A stretch of DNA of 64,000 bases from contig URIZ01000002.1 in assembly GCA_900548005.1 (NCBI GenBank), positions 13,488 through 77,487 on the forward strand, written 5' to 3'. Both the position numbers and the translations under genes were made by a program. Below, one piece after another: positions 25,800-56,901 of the stretch. How positions within the stretch are numbered: position 1 is the first letter of the stretch; every line of letters starts with the position of its first letter. A model generated the notes under the pieces. That model was not told the DNA's origin and ran no database searches. It saw only the letters and a list, made by a program, of their open reading frames with translations. Source of the stretch: an uncultured Eubacteriales bacterium (GTDB lineage: Bacteria > Bacillota > Clostridia > Christensenellales > CAG-917).

Positions 25800-26232
25800 T
25801 TAGCGAATAACTACGGCAGAGCCACGCTCCCGTCAACTCATGTACGCTCAGTACATTAGGGTTGCCGTTAGCGTGGCTCTTTCTTGTTCTTCATCTAAAT
25901 ATAACGATTATTTCACTTAATATTTATTGACTGCCGCAAAAAAACAACTCATGTACCAAATGTACACTAGGGTTGTTGCCCAAGGGGCTTTTCCTTGCTC
26001 TACATCTAAATATCAGCCTTATTTACTAGTTTTTTTATTAGCGAATAACTTCGGCAGAGCCACGCTCCCGTCAACTCATGTGCCAAATGTATATTAGGGT
26101 TGCCGATAGCGTGGCTCTTTCTTGTTCTTCATCTAAATATAACGATTATTTCACTTAATATTTATTGACTGCCGCAAAAAAAACAACTCATGTATCAAAC
26201 TTACACTAGGGTTGTTGCCCAAGGGGCTTTTC
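25800..26232. repeat. tandem array of four ~118-bp units (X1-Y1-X2-Y2; 238-bp super-period), each carrying a conserved bulged hairpin
   Basis: X1 25800-25917, Y1 25918-26037, X2 26038-26155, Y2 26156-26232 (truncated). Shared core is CAACTCATGTRY-loop-RTRYAYTAGGGTTG. X units add an outer stem AGAGCCACGCT/AGCGTGGCTCT (25818-25880, 26056-26118). Confidence 0.9.
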
Positions 26233-26252
26233 CGAACAAAAGCCGTCATTGC

Positions 26253-26394
26253 GGCAACGGCATCGCTTGCGTGCAAGCAACGCCGAGAGCCGCATTAGGC
26301 TTGTTGTTCTGCTAACCGCGCCGAAAATCTTTGCTATCAGTCTGGTCACGGACAAAAACTCCTGCCGCAATTTCGCAAGATTGTCGGCTTGGTG
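26253..26394. repeat. dispersed repeat, P+Q modules (copy 1 of 4)
   Basis: GGCAACGGCATCGCTTGC..GCAAGCAAYGCCGAGAGCC hairpin followed by TCTGCTAACCGCG...AAAAACTCC..CCGCARTTTCGC.ARATTRTCKGCTTGGTG. Other copies are at 46323-46510, 46511-46658 and 56733-56820. Confidence 0.85.
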
Positions 26395-26423
26395 TTTTAA
26401 GCGGTAAAATTCAAATATTCCGT

Positions 26424-26651
26424 GTCATCCTGAGCTTGTCGAAGGATCTCGTGGAAACGAAACGTCACTATATACACGTCATTTTACATCATTCCGCTAC
26501 CGCGAGATTGCCACGCTTACGCTACTCGCAACTGCTATGCTTGCGCATAGAAACCTGCGGTTTTGCCTTTTTCAAAGGCGTTGCTACGTGAATACATACG
26601 CTACGCAACCCTTGCAAGCAAGTTGCTCCGCTTTGCATTGACAACATGACA
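26424..26651. repeat. dispersed repeat, R module (copy 1 of 2)
   Basis: About 228 bp, highly similar to 46697-46924, except that 26435-26522 is the reverse complement of 46708-46795. Contains several short hairpins (CTATGC-TTGC-GCATAG, the CTTGCAAG palindrome). Confidence 0.9.
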
Positions 26652-26706
26652 GTTGGGTGGGATACCCACACCCGAATACAGCTCTAAAAATCACGCAAAA
26701 TTGTTG

Positions 26707-26735
26707 TTGCAAAAATCGGCGGTTGATGATATAAT
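26707..26735 (+). promoter_or_regulatory. extended -10 promoter for the SRP RNA gene
   Basis: TTGCAA (26707-26712), 17-nt spacer, TGATATAAT (26727-26735). Predicted start is near 26742. Confidence 0.65.
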
Positions 26736-26741
26736 CATACT

Positions 26742-27010
26742 GCTGTGCTAGACGGGGAGCTTGCGGTGCCCTGTAAACTGCAATCCGCAATAGCAGTGTC
26801 GAACACCATCCTAGGTCTTCATCATGGTTGGCTGCACGGCGCAAGGAGTGTCGATATCAAGGTCCTGTGCAATGTCATACTGTGAACCGTGTCAGAGCTT
26901 GACCGCAGCAGCACTAAGCAGGCGTTGGCGTGTGCCACAGGGAAACTTTGAAGGAGCCACCTACGTCGTTTCCGCTTCGGTGATGATTATCGAAGATGGC
27001 GCACAGTTTT
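26742..27010 (+). ncRNA. ffs: signal recognition particle RNA, large Bacillus/Clostridium type with Alu domain
   Basis: The 5' GTGCTAGACGGGGAGCTTGCGGTGCCCTGTAAACTGCAATCCGC matches the Alu-domain pattern of Gram-positive SRP RNAs. GGTCCTGTGCAATG...TGAACCGTGTCAG..GC AGCAGCACTAAGCAGG matches the domain IV pattern. The 5' CTGTGC pairs with the 3' GCACAG. Ends are approximate. Confidence 0.75.
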
Positions 27011-27075: not shown

Positions 27076-27207
27076 GTTTTTTGAGTTGCGTTATTGTTTT
27101 TTAAGTTCGTTATGTTTTTCAAACTTTGTTTTTAAGCTCATATTGCTTTTCAAACTTTGTTTTTAAGCTCGTATTGCCTTTCAAACTCTGTTTTCAAACC
27201 GCTTTGT
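27076..27207. repeat. T-rich tandem repeats (~32-bp unit TTTTCAAACTTTGTTTTTAAGCTCRTATTGC, 2.5 copies, preceded by related 16-18-bp units)
   Basis: Units at 27116-27147 and 27148-27179, partial at 27180-27207. Related TTTTTTGAGTTGCGTTATTG / TTTTTTAAGTTCGTTATG lie upstream. Confidence 0.8.
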
Positions 27208-45700: not shown

Positions 45701-46313
45701 CGTCAACCCGCTCGCTTTGCAGACCTTGCAAGAGACCGAAGAAAGACTTCAAGAGCAAGTGACCTATCGCGACGACATCCAAAAAGCGTATGATGACATC
45801 GTCACAATCATCAACGAGCTTACGGGCGAGATGCAAACCAAGTTTACGGACGCTTTTGCCCAAATCAGCGAAAACTTCAAGGAAGTGTTCCAACAACTCT
45901 TCGGCGGTGGCAAGGGCGAGCTGCGTCTAAACATGCAAGACACGGACGATCCGCTTGAAGCGGGTATCGACATCTACGCTCAGCCCCCGGGAAAGAAATT
46001 GCAAAACATCTCGCTTTTGAGCGGCGGAGAGCAAGCACTCACGGCAATATCCATATTGTTTGCAATCCTCAAGCTCAAACCGATGCCGTTCTGCGTGCTT
46101 GACGAAATCGAAGCGGCTCTTGACGATGCAAACGTCAACTTGTTTGCCGAATTCTTGAAGAAATTCAGCGACTACACGCAATTCATCGTCATCACGCACA
46201 GAAAACCGACCATGCGCCACGCAGACACGATTTTCGGTGTTACGATGGAAGAAAAGGGCGTCACCAAGATCGTTTCAATCGAATTTGAAGATGCGGTAAA
46301 ACACGCAAAATGA
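42723..46313 (+). CDS. smc: chromosome partition protein Smc
   Basis: Walker A GPNGCGKSN, long coiled coils, hinge, signature LSGGEQALTAI, Walker B FCVLDEIEAALD. The TTG 42723 start (AAGGCGGTG RBS) gives the canonical M-LNFVKIEARGFKSF N-terminus. The ORF is open from 42669. Confidence 0.9.
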   Translation: MLNFVKIEARGFKSFADKIEIPFQEGVTAIIGPNGCGKSNVADAIRWTLGEQSAKSLRGKNMQDVIFAGTEKRKSMSYCEVSLTFNNSNQHIFPTMPFDEVVITRKLDRSGLSEYYINHNRVRMRDVISLFHDTGIGKEGYSIIGQGRVAEIMSAKPGDRRQIFEEAAGISKFRAQRTEAERKLEKTAVNLDTANQLIEEIQKQINPLRRQAETAQKYFELKAELKKNEVNLYIYNYENNQGIKEKINAKIDKAVTELRIREMQLAECVKKYDDSMRELAGIDRVYDDANGELLSLKVDAAKIEGQAGILKERINHIQGEITRLNSELQSIDNQLIVSGNLIQKAEEKKESEFQAFLLAKQEADALEAKYSSLTRTLAGSETDLEARNTEYVRAIEELGALKTNLSSIVAEKGINEERAKNLNALVNQQKARLDEELTNLSIYDANVKSTKERMRQLMTEYNETLSTKMECQEAIKSYADDVISLNQKLAIVLSNLNLATSIKNDYAGYQEAVKRLMQDSKHDPVLESKIMGVMAEVITVPSDFEAAIEYALGGAMQNVLVENENDAKDLINYLKQKGYGRITFRPLSSCRPRPIPAEHRGILSEPGCYGLASDLIKYDKRFDGFVQTLLGSTVVVNNIDNAVRIFKKYNQAVKIVTLDGEIFSRGGEITGGSRRSQTNGLLAQEKKIEQYQASLEKIKSNIALLDKQKQEREQELKDCEERIESLNKEIGELRIDNGLNEDKAKQAFEVTEALKGEISEKAKEYEIVKSRIKELDEKVSSIDELEKIVNERKTEYTTLLESSKSTSSEQKSERETMMTQVTEMRVKLAGYKANLDAIDQELNRYNREKQSLEEDKMDCIADLKREEQNLANIENAPEKTVFSKEDEERIAALEKQITEFSERKQILTESIKSLDAEKTRLTEEKSKLGEDKVRAEGMLQQVDIEIRNQQQHILEEYDLTYSSCLEFKDPEFKAYGALTVISDLKKSINRLGDVNPLALQTLQETEERLQEQVTYRDDIQKAYDDIVTIINELTGEMQTKFTDAFAQISENFKEVFQQLFGGGKGELRLNMQDTDDPLEAGIDIYAQPPGKKLQNISLLSGGEQALTAISILFAILKLKPMPFCVLDEIEAALDDANVNLFAEFLKKFSDYTQFIVITHRKPTMRHADTIFGVTMEEKGVTKIVSIEFEDAVKHAK

Positions 46314-46322
46314 GCAAAAACC

Positions 46323-46510
46323 GTCGCATAGGCAACGGCATCGCTTGCAAGCAAGCAATGCCGAGAGCCTGGCTAGGTTTATTGCTCTGCTAACCGCGCA
46401 GAGAATTTGCGCTCTCAGTTCAAGCAGGGGCAAAAACTCCTGTTGCAGTTTCGCCAAATTATCTGCTTGGTATGTTCGAAAGGGCGGGACACCCGCACCC
46501 GAATAAAAAT
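46323..46510. repeat. dispersed repeat, P+Q modules plus GGGCGGG hairpin (copy 2a)
   Basis: Direct tandem partner of 46511-46658. Starts 10 nt after the smc stop. Confidence 0.9.
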
Positions 46511-46658
46511 GTCGCATAGGCAACGGCATCGCTTGCAAGCAAGCAATGCCGAGAGCCTGGCTAGGTTTATTGCTCTGCTAACCGCGCAGAGAATTTGTGA
46601 CAGTTCAAGCAGGGGCAAAAACTCCGACCGCAGTTTCGCCAAATTATCTGCTTGGTGG
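46511..46658. repeat. dispersed repeat, P+Q modules (copy 2b)
   Basis: Near-identical to 46323-46471 over the P hairpin and the TCTGCTAACCGCGCAGAGAATTTG...CTGCTTGGT core. Confidence 0.9.
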
Positions 46659-46696
46659 CTCGCTCCGCTAGCGGTTTGTCGCAAAAGCCCCCTGTT

Positions 46697-46924
46697 GTCA
46701 TTGCGAGCGCAAGCGTGGCAATCTCGCGGGAGCGGAATGATGTGAAATGACGTGCATATAGTGCCGTTTCGTTTCCACGAGATCCTTCGACAAGCTACTC
46801 GCAACAGCTATGCTTACGCATAGAACCTGCGGTTTTGCCTTTTTCAAAGGCGTTGCTACGTGAATACATATGCTACGCAACCCTTGCAAGCAAGTTGCTC
46901 CGCTTTGCATTGACAGGATGACAA
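46697..46924. repeat. dispersed repeat, R module (copy 2 of 2)
   Basis: Matches 26424-26651, with the central 88 bp (46708-46795) inverted. Ends 70 nt before the ftsY ATG. Confidence 0.9.
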
Positions 46925-46993: not shown

Positions 46994-47887
46994 ATGGGAT
47001 TTTTTCAAAAAATCAAAGAAGGTATAAAAAAGACCAAAGACGCTTTCTCAAAAAAGCTGTTTTTTGCATTTTCCGCACGTGAACTCAACGATGAGTTTTA
47101 TGAAAATCTCGAAGAAGCGTTGCTGACCGCCGACGTTGGCATAACCGCAACCGAAAACTTGCTTGAAGAGCTTAAAAACGAGATTTTCAAGCGCAAAATC
47201 AAGAAACCCGAAGATGCCAAATCCGTGCTTGCCGAGCTTATGGTGCAAGACATCGATTATGATGTGCCGGAGTATGAATATCCGCTCGTGATTTTGCTTT
47301 CGGGCGTCAACGGCGTTGGCAAAACGACTGCGATCGGCAAACTTGCGCACAGATTCAAAGAAGAAGGCAAGTCGGTTGTGGTTGCGGCGGCAGATACGTT
47401 CAGAGCGGCGGCAAGCGAGCAACTCGAAGTGTGGGGGCAGCGTGCAGGCGTGCGTGTGATTCGCCACAGCGAAGGCGCAGATCCTGCAGCAGTCGTGTTT
47501 GACGCGATTTCGTCCGCAAAGGCAAAAGGCAATGACGTTGTGCTTATCGACACGGCAGGCAGACTTCACAACAAGAAGAATCTCATGGCGGAATTGCAAA
47601 AGATTTGCCGTGTGGTGGATATAGAACTTCCCGAGGCGGACTTCCGCAAATATCTCGTGCTTGACGCAACGACTGGACAAAACGCGGTTTCTCAGGCGCA
47701 AATTTTCAGTGAAGACATCGACACTGACGGCATCATTCTCACAAAACTTGACGGAACGGCAAAGGGCGGTGTCGTGCTTGCAATCAGCGATGAAATCGGA
47801 CTTCCCGTCGTATATGTAGGTGTTGGCGAACAAATCGACGATTTGATCCCCTTCAACGCAAAGGAATTTATCGACGCATTGCTGTAA
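46994..47887 (+). CDS. ftsY: signal recognition particle receptor FtsY (short form)
   Basis: NG domain with GVNGVGKTTAIGKLA, DTAGRLHNK, TKLDGTAKGG. Confidence 0.92.
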   Translation: MGFFQKIKEGIKKTKDAFSKKLFFAFSARELNDEFYENLEEALLTADVGITATENLLEELKNEIFKRKIKKPEDAKSVLAELMVQDIDYDVPEYEYPLVILLSGVNGVGKTTAIGKLAHRFKEEGKSVVVAAADTFRAAASEQLEVWGQRAGVRVIRHSEGADPAAVVFDAISSAKAKGNDVVLIDTAGRLHNKKNLMAELQKICRVVDIELPEADFRKYLVLDATTGQNAVSQAQIFSEDIDTDGIILTKLDGTAKGGVVLAISDEIGLPVVYVGVGEQIDDLIPFNAKEFIDALL

Positions 47888-48203: not shown

Positions 48204-48527
48204 ATGGACAGATTTGAAATTTCATTGCTCAGGAACTACTATGGTGCGCTCCTGACTCAAAGACAAAACGAGATGCTTGTTATGCATTATGACGAAGATT
48301 TGTCTTTTGGTGAAATCGCGTCCATTTGCGGCGTATCACGTCAAGCCGTTCTCGACGGAATCAACAAGGGCGAAAAGCATCTTGTAGAATTTGAAGAGAA
48401 GTTGCATTGGGTTGAAAAAGACAAGCGTATCAATAGTCTACTTGACGATTTGACCCTTGCCATCGGCAAGGATGAGACCAAACAAGCGGCTTGCGTGGCC
48501 GAGATCAAGCGTATATTGGTGGAATAA
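48204..48527 (+). CDS. ylxM: UPF0122 helix-turn-helix protein YlxM
   Basis: About 107 aa, sigma-region-4-like HTH (LSFGEIASICGVSRQAVLDGINKG). Lies immediately upstream of ffh with a TAATG overlap, the conserved Firmicute arrangement. Confidence 0.85.
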   Translation: MDRFEISLLRNYYGALLTQRQNEMLVMHYDEDLSFGEIASICGVSRQAVLDGINKGEKHLVEFEEKLHWVEKDKRINSLLDDLTLAIGKDETKQAACVAEIKRILVE

Positions 48528-49861
48528 TGGCATTATTTGAAAGTCTTTCTGACAGAATGAATCACATATTCTCGAAACTGCGCAACAAGGGCAGATTGAC
48601 GGAACTTGAAATAAAGCAAGCGATGCGCGAGATTCGCGTTGCGCTTTTGGAGGCGGACGTAAACTACAACGTCGTGAAGGACTTCACGGCAAAGGTTAGC
48701 GAAAAGGCATTAGGAGAAGACATTCTCAAGTCTTTGACGCCTGCGCAACAAATCGTGAAGATCGTCAACGAAGAGCTTTGCGCGCTCATGGGCAGCACTC
48801 ATCAAAAACTTGCCGTCAGCGACAAACAACCCACGATTTATATGATGTGCGGTTTGCAAGGCGCGGGCAAAACCACGATGTGCGGCAAACTTGCAACCTA
48901 TCTCAAAAAGCAAAACAAAAAAGTGCTGCTCGTTGCAGGGGATATATACAGACCTGCCGCAATACAACAACTCAAAGTCGTTGCGGGCAAAGCGGGCACA
49001 GAATGTTTCGAGATGGGGCAAATCGATCCCGTCAAGATTGCAAAAGCCGGCGTTGAGTATGCCATCAAAAACGGCTACGACACGATGATAATCGACACGG
49101 CAGGTCGTTTGCATATCGACGAGGCTCTTATGGACGAGCTTGTCAACGTCAAAAAAGCGGTCAATCCCACAGAGATTTTGCTTGTGGTGGACAGCATGAC
49201 GGGACAAGACGCAGTCACAGTTGCGGATACGTTCAACAAAAAACTCGATATAACCGGCGTCATCATGACGAAACTTGACGGCGACACTCGCGGCGGCGCG
49301 GCGTTGTCCATAAAAGCGGTGACGGGCAAGCCTATCAAATTCAACGGCACGGGCGAGAAGATGGAAGATCTCGAACCTTTCCATCCCGAACGCATGGCAT
49401 CGAGAATACTCGGCATGGGTGACGTGCTTACGCTCATAGAAAAGGCAGAGCAGGCTATATCCCAAGACGAAGCTCTCAAACTGCAAAAGAAACTGAAAGA
49501 GAATTCTTTCAATCTCGAAGACTATCTCACTCAGCTTGAAAGCATGAAGAAGATGGGCAACCTTCAAGATATGATGTCCATGATCCCTGGCATGTCCGGC
49601 AAGCTCAAGCAAGGTGCGCAAATCGACGAAAAGCAAATTGCAAAAACCAAGGCGATCATTCAATCTATGACTCCCAAGGAAAGACGCAACCCCGAGATCA
49701 TCAAAGCCTCTCAAAGAAAGCGCATTGCAAAGGGTAGCGGGACGAGCATCCAAGAAGTCAATCAACTGCTCAAACAGTTTGAAATGACCAAAGATATGAT
49801 GGCTCGCATGCAAAAGGGCGGTTTGAAAGGATTGCGCGGCTTGAAAGGTCTTTTCGGCTGA
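48527..49861 (+). CDS. ffh: signal recognition particle protein Ffh
   Basis: MALFESLSDR N-terminus, GLQGAGKTT, DTAGRLHID, TKLDGDTRGG, Met-rich M domain. Confidence 0.95.
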   Translation: MALFESLSDRMNHIFSKLRNKGRLTELEIKQAMREIRVALLEADVNYNVVKDFTAKVSEKALGEDILKSLTPAQQIVKIVNEELCALMGSTHQKLAVSDKQPTIYMMCGLQGAGKTTMCGKLATYLKKQNKKVLLVAGDIYRPAAIQQLKVVAGKAGTECFEMGQIDPVKIAKAGVEYAIKNGYDTMIIDTAGRLHIDEALMDELVNVKKAVNPTEILLVVDSMTGQDAVTVADTFNKKLDITGVIMTKLDGDTRGGAALSIKAVTGKPIKFNGTGEKMEDLEPFHPERMASRILGMGDVLTLIEKAEQAISQDEALKLQKKLKENSFNLEDYLTQLESMKKMGNLQDMMSMIPGMSGKLKQGAQIDEKQIAKTKAIIQSMTPKERRNPEIIKASQRKRIAKGSGTSIQEVNQLLKQFEMTKDMMARMQKGGLKGLRGLKGLFG

Positions 49862-56715: not shown

Positions 56716-56732
56716 GTTCGCTTGATTTTTAG

Positions 56733-56820
56733 TCTGCTAACCGCGCAGAAAATCTCAGTTATCATATCATACATGGTTAAAAGTTCCAACCGCAATTTCA
56801 CGAGATTGTCTGCTTGGTGG
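56733..56820. repeat. dispersed repeat, Q module (copy 3)
   Basis: TCTGCTAACCGCGCAGAAAATC ... CCGCAATTTCACGAGATTGTCTGCTTGGTGG, the same ends and spacing as 26308-26394 and the 46.4/46.6-kb copies. The interior is more diverged. Confidence 0.75.
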
Positions 56821-56901
56821 ATGCGCCGTTGGCGCAAGCGGATATTTTTCATTTCGTTTGTAGCATGTAGCGATAATAAAAAGCACTCTTTCGAGTGCTT
56901 T

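Follow-up and report, generated by a model that had tools for sequence, protein, structure and literature searches.

The 64,000-nucleotide (nt) stretch of DNA analysed here, called the window throughout, comes from an uncultured Eubacteriales bacterium of the order Christensenellales (lineage CAG-917; assembly GCA_900548005.1, contig URIZ01000002.1, positions 13,488 to 77,487) and carries, upstream of two components of the signal recognition particle (SRP) pathway, two copies of one non-coding element. The first copy (26424-26651) precedes ffs, the gene for a bacterial large SRP RNA, located at 26743-27006 on the forward strand (Rfam RF01854, 163 bits). The second (46697-46924) precedes ftsY, encoding the SRP receptor with SRP54 and SRP54_N domains, at 46994-47887 on the forward strand, and ffh lies near ftsY at 48491-49861 (Pfam-based assignment). 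The upstream neighbours are an EF-G-like GTPase gene on the ffs side and smc on the ftsY side. An initial annotation, made from the sequence alone, had reported the near-identity of the two segments and both downstream genes, and these were borne out at the coordinates just given; the gap from the element to the SRP RNA is 91 nt, as it had stated, and the gap to ftsY was measured at 69 nt rather than 70 nt.

The sequence shared by the two loci was delimited with a repeat finder and by self-BLAST of the window (blastn), in which the shared repeats gave E-values of ≤1e-31. Positions 26433-26523 are the reverse complement of 46706-46796 over 91 nt at 95% identity (repeat finder), with E = 8e-32 for these inverted arms, and 26552-26651 is repeated directly at 46824-46923 with 97% identity (repeat finder). 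The internal inverted segment is therefore real, and so are the two hairpin modules and the short inverted repeat TTGCGAG...CTCGCAA of the second copy, all as first described. The unit of about 228 bp that had been proposed stands only in part: the sequence is indeed shared, but the collinear similarity spans about 400 bp (26234-26651 against 46505-46923, self-BLAST), because a 165-nt unit, here termed U, precedes both copies, and it does not constitute one unit. The inverted core likewise comprises 91 reverse-complemented nt but is not a simple flip, as the ends of the copies differ, the left half-stem being ATCCT at ffs and ATTGC at ftsY and the 3' end being ACATGAC at ffs and GGATGAC at ftsY. 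Each intergenic region is a mosaic built from dispersed, non-coding repeat modules of a sort typical of this Christensenellales-like gut Clostridia lineage. The 952 nt between the EF-G-like gene and ffs contain tandem repeats (25800-26233), then unit U, a module flanking the hairpin head (head-flank module), the element itself and H, a module forming a stem-loop; the 680 nt between smc and ftsY contain U-H-U, a linker and the element.

Within these mosaics the element is a tail-to-tail heterodimer of two hairpins that resemble repetitive extragenic palindromic (REP) sequences, their 'GTCAT' heads facing outward. Its arms, P1 (stem ATCCT/AGGAT) and Q (stem ATTGC/GCAAT), are separated by a conserved 53-nt spacer, and the pair as a whole forms a quasi-palindrome. 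The general form of the hairpin is (C/T)GTC-AT-NNN-GAG..loop..N'N'N'-AT-CTC, where the variable part of the stem defines the type (CCT or TCT for P, GTT for M, TGC for Q), the 3' extension is particular to each type, and the stem opening AT-NNN...N'N'N'-AT is found in all of them (CCT, TCT, GTT, TGC). Five Watson-Crick stem pairs enclose an interior of 11-13 nt, followed by a tail of CTC or CTA. The (C/T)GTC tag is present in 33 of the 33 intact hairpins collected, the search pattern having required it; two of the intact hairpins lie in the window, and hairpins were also collected from about 0.7 Mb of fetched loci (designated here by numbers with the prefix L), a sample that is ascertainment-biased.

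At ffs, the head-flank module (..AAGCGGTAAAATTCAAATATTCCG; 26399-26423, forward strand), which precedes hairpin heads at many other loci, leads into an intact P1 hairpin, GTC-ATCCT-GAGCTTGTCGA-AGGAT-CTC, at 26424-26450 on the forward strand, with its TGTC tag at 26423-26426. The spacer follows (26451-26503, forward strand), its ends GTGG...CCGC extending the inverted repeat of the arms, and then the 3' half and loop of a Q hairpin (26504-26523, reverse strand; AGCGTAAGCGTGGCAATCTC). At ftsY, the intact hairpin is of the Q type, GTC-ATTGC-GAGCGCAAGCGTG-GCAAT-CTC, at 46697-46725 on the forward strand, with its TGTC tag at 46696-46699; the 53-nt spacer (46726-46778, reverse strand) is the reverse complement relative to the ffs copy, and it is followed by the 3' half and loop of a P1 hairpin (46779-46796, reverse strand; AGCTTGTCGAAGGATCTC). 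The second arm of each copy is interrupted by a further module, mod3. Pairs free of mod3 recur intact elsewhere, as a Q/P pair at L007 (3421-3535) and as pairs of two other hairpins, P2 and M, at L053, L014 and L021; the P2/M pairs have spacers of 30-50 nt, compared with 53 nt in P1/Q, and the geometry is tail-to-tail.

The mod3 module measures 118 nt at ffs (ACTCGCAAC...GCATTGA; 26524-26641, forward strand), where it lies inside the Q arm, and 117 nt at ftsY (46797-46913, forward strand), where it lies inside the P1 arm. Beyond it stands a hairpin head on the reverse strand. At ftsY this head, CAGGATGAC (46914-46922; GTCATCCTG on the reverse strand), is itself the matching 5' half of the interrupted P1 hairpin; at ffs it is CAACATGAC (26642-26650; GTCATGTTG on the reverse strand), of the M type, and mismatches the Q half across mod3. 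In the units collected, mod3 is always flanked by the two halves of one (C/T)GTC hairpin and has a fixed orientation relative to that host hairpin. With slashes marking its boundaries, the junction is constant, ..GCT/ACTCGCAAC....GCATTGA/CA-NNN-ATGAC, with the left flank ..GCT in most units and junctions identical in 36 distinct units. No target-site duplication was found at the junctions and no terminal inverted repeats in the mod3 copies aligned. Of 23 distinct alleles, 16 have complementary 3-nt half-stems on either side of mod3, compared with a mean of 6.3 after shuffling (P ~1e-5). RNAalifold, applied to 24 mod3 units, predicts this closing stem with CG/GC/UA covariation, and four small internal hairpins, the first of them (h1) 14 nt from the left end and the last (h4) only a few nt short of the right one. 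The first inner hairpin, CTATGC-NNNN-GCATAG (26537-26552 and 46810-46825), has a stem that is near-invariant over the 24 copies, with one G-U change, and a 4-nt loop with at least 10 different sequences among them.

Alignment on the hairpin pair makes the core collinear across the four cases compared: L007 3421-3535, the copy at ftsY and, in reverse complement, the copy at ffs and L016. What differs is the position of mod3, which sits in the P arm of the ftsY copy, in the Q arm of the ffs copy and of L016, and in neither arm of L007 3421-3535. The P2/M pair offers the same series: it is intact at three loci (L053, L014, L021), carries mod3 in the M arm at three (L039, L040, L042) and in the P2 arm at two (L027, L036), with boundaries that are the same to the nucleotide and without target duplication. 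Because the hairpin pair is quasi-palindromic, loci that are aligned on mod3 show the rest of the pair as if inverted; the apparent inversion arises because mod3, fixed in orientation to its host hairpin, is nested in opposite arms of such a pair. Neither an inversion event nor a switch is required to explain the two copies. In our assessment the element is probably a mosaic repeat of the kind represented by REPs, REP doublets forming hairpins (REPINs) and bacterial interspersed mosaic elements (BIMEs), with mod3 nested in opposite arms and the inversion an effect of alignment.

One past inversion could in principle have produced the same two copies, if a 228-bp unit had been duplicated and its core flipped once by template switching or by recombination between the arms, with no switching since. 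The 95% complementarity of the inverted segment agrees with such an event, and hairpin inverted repeats are known substrates of template-switch inversion. A flip from loop to loop, however, would leave chimeric hairpins on both sides, whereas the hairpin on the distal side is a perfect one at both loci, P1 at ffs and Q at ftsY. Leftward of the hairpin pair the sequences bear no relation to each other, mod3 exists independently in Q hairpins with matching halves (L016, L022), and the P2/M pair displays the same alternatives. Furthermore, the mod3 of ffs is 100% identical to copies that reside in M-type hairpins of other genomes (L007, L012) and only 95% identical to the ftsY copy. A single inversion is thus very unlikely in our view. 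The ffs copy is itself chimeric, with a Q half-hairpin on one side of mod3 and an M-type head on the other, and at the ffs locus of L053 an intact P2/M pair stands before the same H module. Judged by this composition the ffs copy is a recombinant, and recombination between copies would explain how a Q half came to be joined to an M-type mod3 and head. The 228-bp unit was also considered as a single MITE (miniature inverted-repeat transposable element) with TGTCAT...ATGACA ends; this was ruled out, since the ends come from different hairpins and the modules occur separately.

Exact look-ups of FtsY and of the EF-G-like protein led back to the source contig alone, near-identical places being collapsed, and placed the window at CABRUH010000001.1:36524-100523 of assembly GCA_902474055.1. 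Strain panels were obtained by exact look-ups of the small, conserved ribosomal proteins S20 and S16, which gave ten assemblies per locus. At the ffs locus the element was found in eight of the ten, at 98-100% identity and in orientation A in all eight; L052 has neither U, element nor H, and L053 is without the core and mod3. At the ftsY locus six of the ten assemblies carry the element, as do L011 and L019, and all eight of these carriers, two other species included, have it in orientation B; it is absent from L061, which belongs to the same species, and from three relatives. At neither locus was the module found in both orientations: the carrier assemblies, related genomes included, show a single fixed orientation per locus, an outcome that the initial annotation had named among its refuting conditions.

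These counts bear most directly on the inverton-like switch that the initial annotation had suggested, in which the core of 88-91 nt would be flipped by a recombinase encoded elsewhere, placing the SRP RNA and FtsY under phase-variable control. Such a switch would account for the finding, in a single genome, of the core in either orientation with respect to mod3 and for the short inverted repeats that flank the core of the ftsY copy, and weak promoter-like matches (9-of-12 consensus) that use the TCGACA of the P1 loop occur inside the element. The switch is contradicted by the constancy of orientation at each locus (8/8 and 8/8 assemblies), and the flip itself disappears when the loci are aligned on the hairpin pair. 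The flanking repeats amount to just 4-7 bp (7 bp, TTGCGAG/CTCGCAA, at ftsY; at ffs an AGCT palindrome only), and the left half-stem and the 3' head differ between the copies. The same two arrangements are seen at other loci for the unrelated P2/M pair. Pfam scans of the open reading frames (ORFs) of the 64-kb window, together with precomputed Pfam matches of its called genes, detected housekeeping families only and no recombinase or transposase domain, in agreement with the original statement that no recombinase gene is present there, and no transposase appears in any fetched locus annotation. As set out below, the element is moreover dispensable at both loci and, at ffs, lies upstream of an independent strong promoter. 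We regard a switch of this kind as highly improbable.

The SRP RNA has a promoter of its own, TTGCAA-17-TATAAT with TG, at 26707-26735 on the forward strand (sequence match), and this promoter is situated downstream of the element; a role of the element as ffs leader was ruled out for that reason. In L052 and L053, which have no element at ffs, the 60-nt promoter stretch (26683-26742) is 100% identical over the aligned 57-58 nt and the SRP RNA is 99.6-100% identical, the range over all ten assemblies being 99.2-100%. The suggestion of a regulatory or leader element shared by the SRP pathway does not hold, as L052 and L053 retain both the SRP RNA and the promoter stretch without it, L061 has ftsY without it, and the ffs promoter lies beyond it. 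Going by these natural strains, the element appears to be dispensable at both loci.

A broader proposal is that the element has been co-opted as a cis-acting sequence on its neighbours, ffs and ftsY among them, whether by terminating or insulating against transcription that reads through from the EF-G-like gene and from smc, through RNA stability, by binding a protein or as a small RNA. In favour of this proposal, the hairpin pair of the ftsY copy (46697-46796) is 99% identical to those of L011 and L019, where ftsY is about 90% and the U units about 86-88% identical. The mod3 stems are invariant while their loops are hypervariable, and the closing stem covaries. The predicted fold of E-B is better than that of shuffled sequence (z = -3.2), whereas that of E-A gains only marginally (z = -1.6). 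REPs are known to influence termination and the stability of mRNA (PMC3733652), which would be in keeping with such a function. On the other side, presence and absence of the element are polymorphic within the species at both loci while the flanking promoter and genes are unchanged, the orientation of mod3 relative to neighbouring genes is mixed, and no T-run terminators occur within the element. Rfam searches of the window, with gathering thresholds, and of both intergenic regions, with E ≤ 5, recovered solely the SRP RNA and a tRNA and left the element unmatched. Co-option is, on balance, unlikely.

The dispersal of the modules favours the mosaic reading. Copy number and neighbouring genes, which the initial annotation had singled out as informative, were surveyed in relatives (human-gut metagenomes and a metagenome-assembled genome (MAG) labelled Christensenella sp.) by means of a 22-mer of mod3. 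Nine copies were recovered in two other genomes together with 31 human-gut metagenome contigs, and clustering of the flanks resolved about 24 distinct genomic contexts. The copies are dispersed beside unrelated genes, including dnaA, recR and genes for IMPDH, MreB, an ABC transporter, a DHH phosphoesterase, an MFS transporter and a subtilase, as well as two alpha-amylase-family genes, one of them glgB-like. Only two of the 22-mer loci, L011 and L019, have an ftsY orthologue. Among related loci, mod3, the core, U, H and the tandem-repeat module vary in both combination and orientation. The third option of the initial annotation, a REP- or BIME-like mosaic that landed twice, is supported by these many copies beside unrelated genes. 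In short-read assemblies, many mod3 copies are no more than about 100 nt away from the end of a contig, as at L003, L005, L008, L015, L025, L032 and L034, and three of the six mod3 matches of one genome are at contig ends. Repeats of the mod3 type break short-read assemblies, and under-counting in MAGs is to be expected.

The hairpin class itself reaches much further. A generic Q form, GTCATTGCGAG-N6-14-GCAATCTC, was found in at least 120 viral contigs of IMG/VR, which come from many environments and contain up to 8 copies per 10 kb (L114) among the matches listed. The commonest loop among those matches is CGAAGCGAA, which contains GCGAAGC, a sequence known to form a very stable DNA mini-hairpin. 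Neither the mod3 22-mer nor the P1 extension was matched in the viral contigs scanned. A BLAST search of the element against plasmids was also negative, and against phages its sole match was 41 nt to the Q hairpin, in a fecal phage. A full-text literature search with the hairpin sequences and with typical spurious peptides returned irrelevant primer matches only.

If the mosaic reading is correct, the modules would spread and reshuffle through insertion directed by the hairpins, through homologous recombination or gene conversion among copies, or through both. As passengers in long, permissive intergenic regions they would be either selfish or neutral, with no specific part in SRP expression, and the presence of two copies at SRP genes 20 kb apart would reflect local copying of the composite U/hairpin-pair architecture rather than co-regulation. 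Several points weigh against this account. Two copies beside SRP components would be unlikely under uniform placement, and the local copying invoked above is something that we infer. The neutral view alone does not explain why the hairpin pair should be 99% identical across species in which ftsY is about 90% identical; this conservation hints at constraint or recent exchange. Orientation was read from consensus assemblies, in which a minority orientation inside a population would not show. The insertion of mod3 was deduced from paralogous filled and empty hairpins, and no orthologous site pair differing solely by mod3 was found among the loci compared. The sequence subtypes of mod3 partly track the type of the host stem, and some of the half-stem matching could have arisen when an entire 'hairpin plus mod3' unit was duplicated and then underwent compensatory change. 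Finally, no mobilising enzyme was identified among the window ORFs or the fetched locus annotations.

The nearest published match is the superfamily of CGTC/TGTC-tagged REPs and their heterodimers described by Di Nocera, De Gregorio and Rocco in 2013 (PMC3733652). The two systems have in common an unpaired (C/T)GTC tag, an A-T/T-A stem opening and a short unpaired tail, heterodimers of opposed hairpins with spacers (20-100 bp in the published family) whose ends are complementary, and mosaic intergenic clusters in which the hairpins are interleaved with other repeats, with no dedicated transposase known. The CGTC REPs have stems of 8-9 bp, loops of 4-5 nt, a CCA tail and dimers that are mostly head-to-head (PMC3733652), in contrast to the five Watson-Crick pairs around an 11-13-nt GAG...(C/G)(G/T)(A/G) interior, the CTC tail and the tail-to-tail pairs with a conserved spacer seen here. 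The element is also represented by few copies in the 64-kb window (two intact hairpins), and its host belongs to a gut Clostridia lineage. By analogy, it resembles that superfamily in the way it works and would not be counted as a member, because the stem and loop dimensions and the CCA tail are not shared. The REPINs of Bertels and Rainey (PMC3337134) and the BIMEs of Escherichia coli are comparable in that two inverted REP-type hairpins and a spacer make up one unit, and in that mosaics with other motifs fill intergenic regions and vary by strain. REPINs, on the other hand, are built from GTAG-type REPs tied to the RAYT transposase (IS200-like Y1), unlike the (C/T)GTC tag of the present hairpins, and BIMEs have no counterpart to the nested 118-nt element.

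The nesting of mod3 recalls insertion sequences that target REP hairpins, of which IS1397 and ISKpn1 are examples; insertion inside a REP-type palindrome is both site- and orientation-specific for them, as it would be for mod3. ISPpu9 is another such sequence (PMC12288879). The mod3 module differs in being 118 nt long, non-coding and non-autonomous, and no related full-length insertion sequence was seen in the loci examined. A further likeness, which we take to be a working analogy only, is to the palindrome-associated elements derived from IS200/IS605 (PATEs): mod3 similarly has no terminal inverted repeats or target duplication, has subterminal hairpins and would have inserted in one direction beside ..GCT, although no Y1 (HUH) transposase was seen in the fetched locus annotations. 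Gut invertons of the type detected by PhaseFinder also present a segment in two orientations, with short inverted repeats, upstream of genes. Their repeats are typically about 10-30 bp, against 4-7 bp here, and the two orientations of the present element are found at different loci and never at one, with no invertase nearby and with the element dispensable. Of the terminal inverted repeats and target-site duplication of a classical MITE, mod3 has neither, and the hairpin pair has imperfect inverted arms but no evident duplication at its ends. We tentatively suggest that mod3 may be non-autonomous yet active, recognising specifically the 5' shoulder of REP-like hairpins with a (C/T)GTC tag and inserting there one-way without target duplication, although we think this rather doubtful; mobilisation would perhaps be by a single-strand (HUH/Y1-type) or guide-RNA-directed enzyme encoded elsewhere.

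The remaining modules of the two regions are variable as well. Unit U contains a 12-bp hairpin, GGCATCGCTTGC..GCAAGCAACGCC. Its ffs copy occupies 26234-26398 (165 nt, repeat finder and self-BLAST), and at the ftsY locus the first copy (46312-46476) begins at the smc stop codon and the second spans 46505-46656; a partial fourth copy (56726-56834) lies downstream of a gene for a 715-amino acid (aa) protein. All are on the forward strand, as are the dispersed H modules (GGGTGGGATACCCACACCCGAATA stem-loop) at 26652-26682 and, between two U copies, at 46477-46508. The [U-H] array between smc and ftsY (46312-46656; L055-L064) contains one to four U copies depending on the strain, with an intergenic length of 217 to 1057 nt. 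Downstream of the EF-G-like gene, the tandem and sub-repeated module IG1rep (25800-26233, forward strand; two units of about 238 nt) is variable in copy number and composition among strains, and the interval from the EF-G-like gene to the ABC permease gene ranges from 756 to 1528 nt (L045-L054). On its minus strand (HQADNLAKLRQEF...; 26301-26398, 46379-46476, 46564-46656 and 56726-56834) U has a synonymous-looking pattern of substitution, and in its first 36 nt the subfamily differences are all synonymous in one minus-strand frame (HQADNLAKLRQE). U was nevertheless rejected as a gene: a protein search gave only ORFs of 41-86 aa in very small clusters, most of them single-member, with inconsistent ends and some frameshifts. 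The ORFs over U contain no Pfam domains. It is most likely that U is non-coding and that the synonymous pattern is coincidental.

In L059, about 75-210 nt past the smc stop, a 134-nt element with a REP-like hairpin (CATTCAGAGCGAAGCGTGGGAATC) lies inside U, with an apparent 5-bp duplication, CTAAC. This insertion is of the classical MITE type, unlike mod3. The ftsY-ylxM interval holds extra genes in some strains: a 220-aa protein with a T5orf172/MUG113 domain in L056 (3455-4117) and L061 (3454-4116), and a 219-aa protein with a small helix-turn-helix regulator in L063 (3150-4121). This interval is a second strain-variable spot within the SRP gene cluster. Past the SRP RNA terminator, 27079-27190 consists of 31-nt tandem repeats (TTTTTAAG.TCGTATTG.TTTTCAAACTTTG) and is 75-88% identical with indels between strains, where the SRP RNA is 99-100% identical.

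To the question as originally posed the answer is negative, with no evidence for an orientation switch or for a regulator shared by the SRP pathway. The nesting of one repeat in either arm of another can mimic inversion, which calls for caution wherever pipelines for inverton detection work by comparing paralogous repeats. In kind the finding is ordinary, with modest novelty in the way mod3 is nested site-specifically, and its value is descriptive: an uncultured Clostridia lineage of the human gut has a modular system of REP/REPIN-like repeats, whose hairpin pairs carry a precisely nested 118-nt element in either arm. Should mod3 prove to be a hairpin-specific parasite, it would open the recognition and propagation of such hairpins to experiment, and this would be worthwhile because hairpins of this class are extremely widespread and no enzyme is known to mobilise them.

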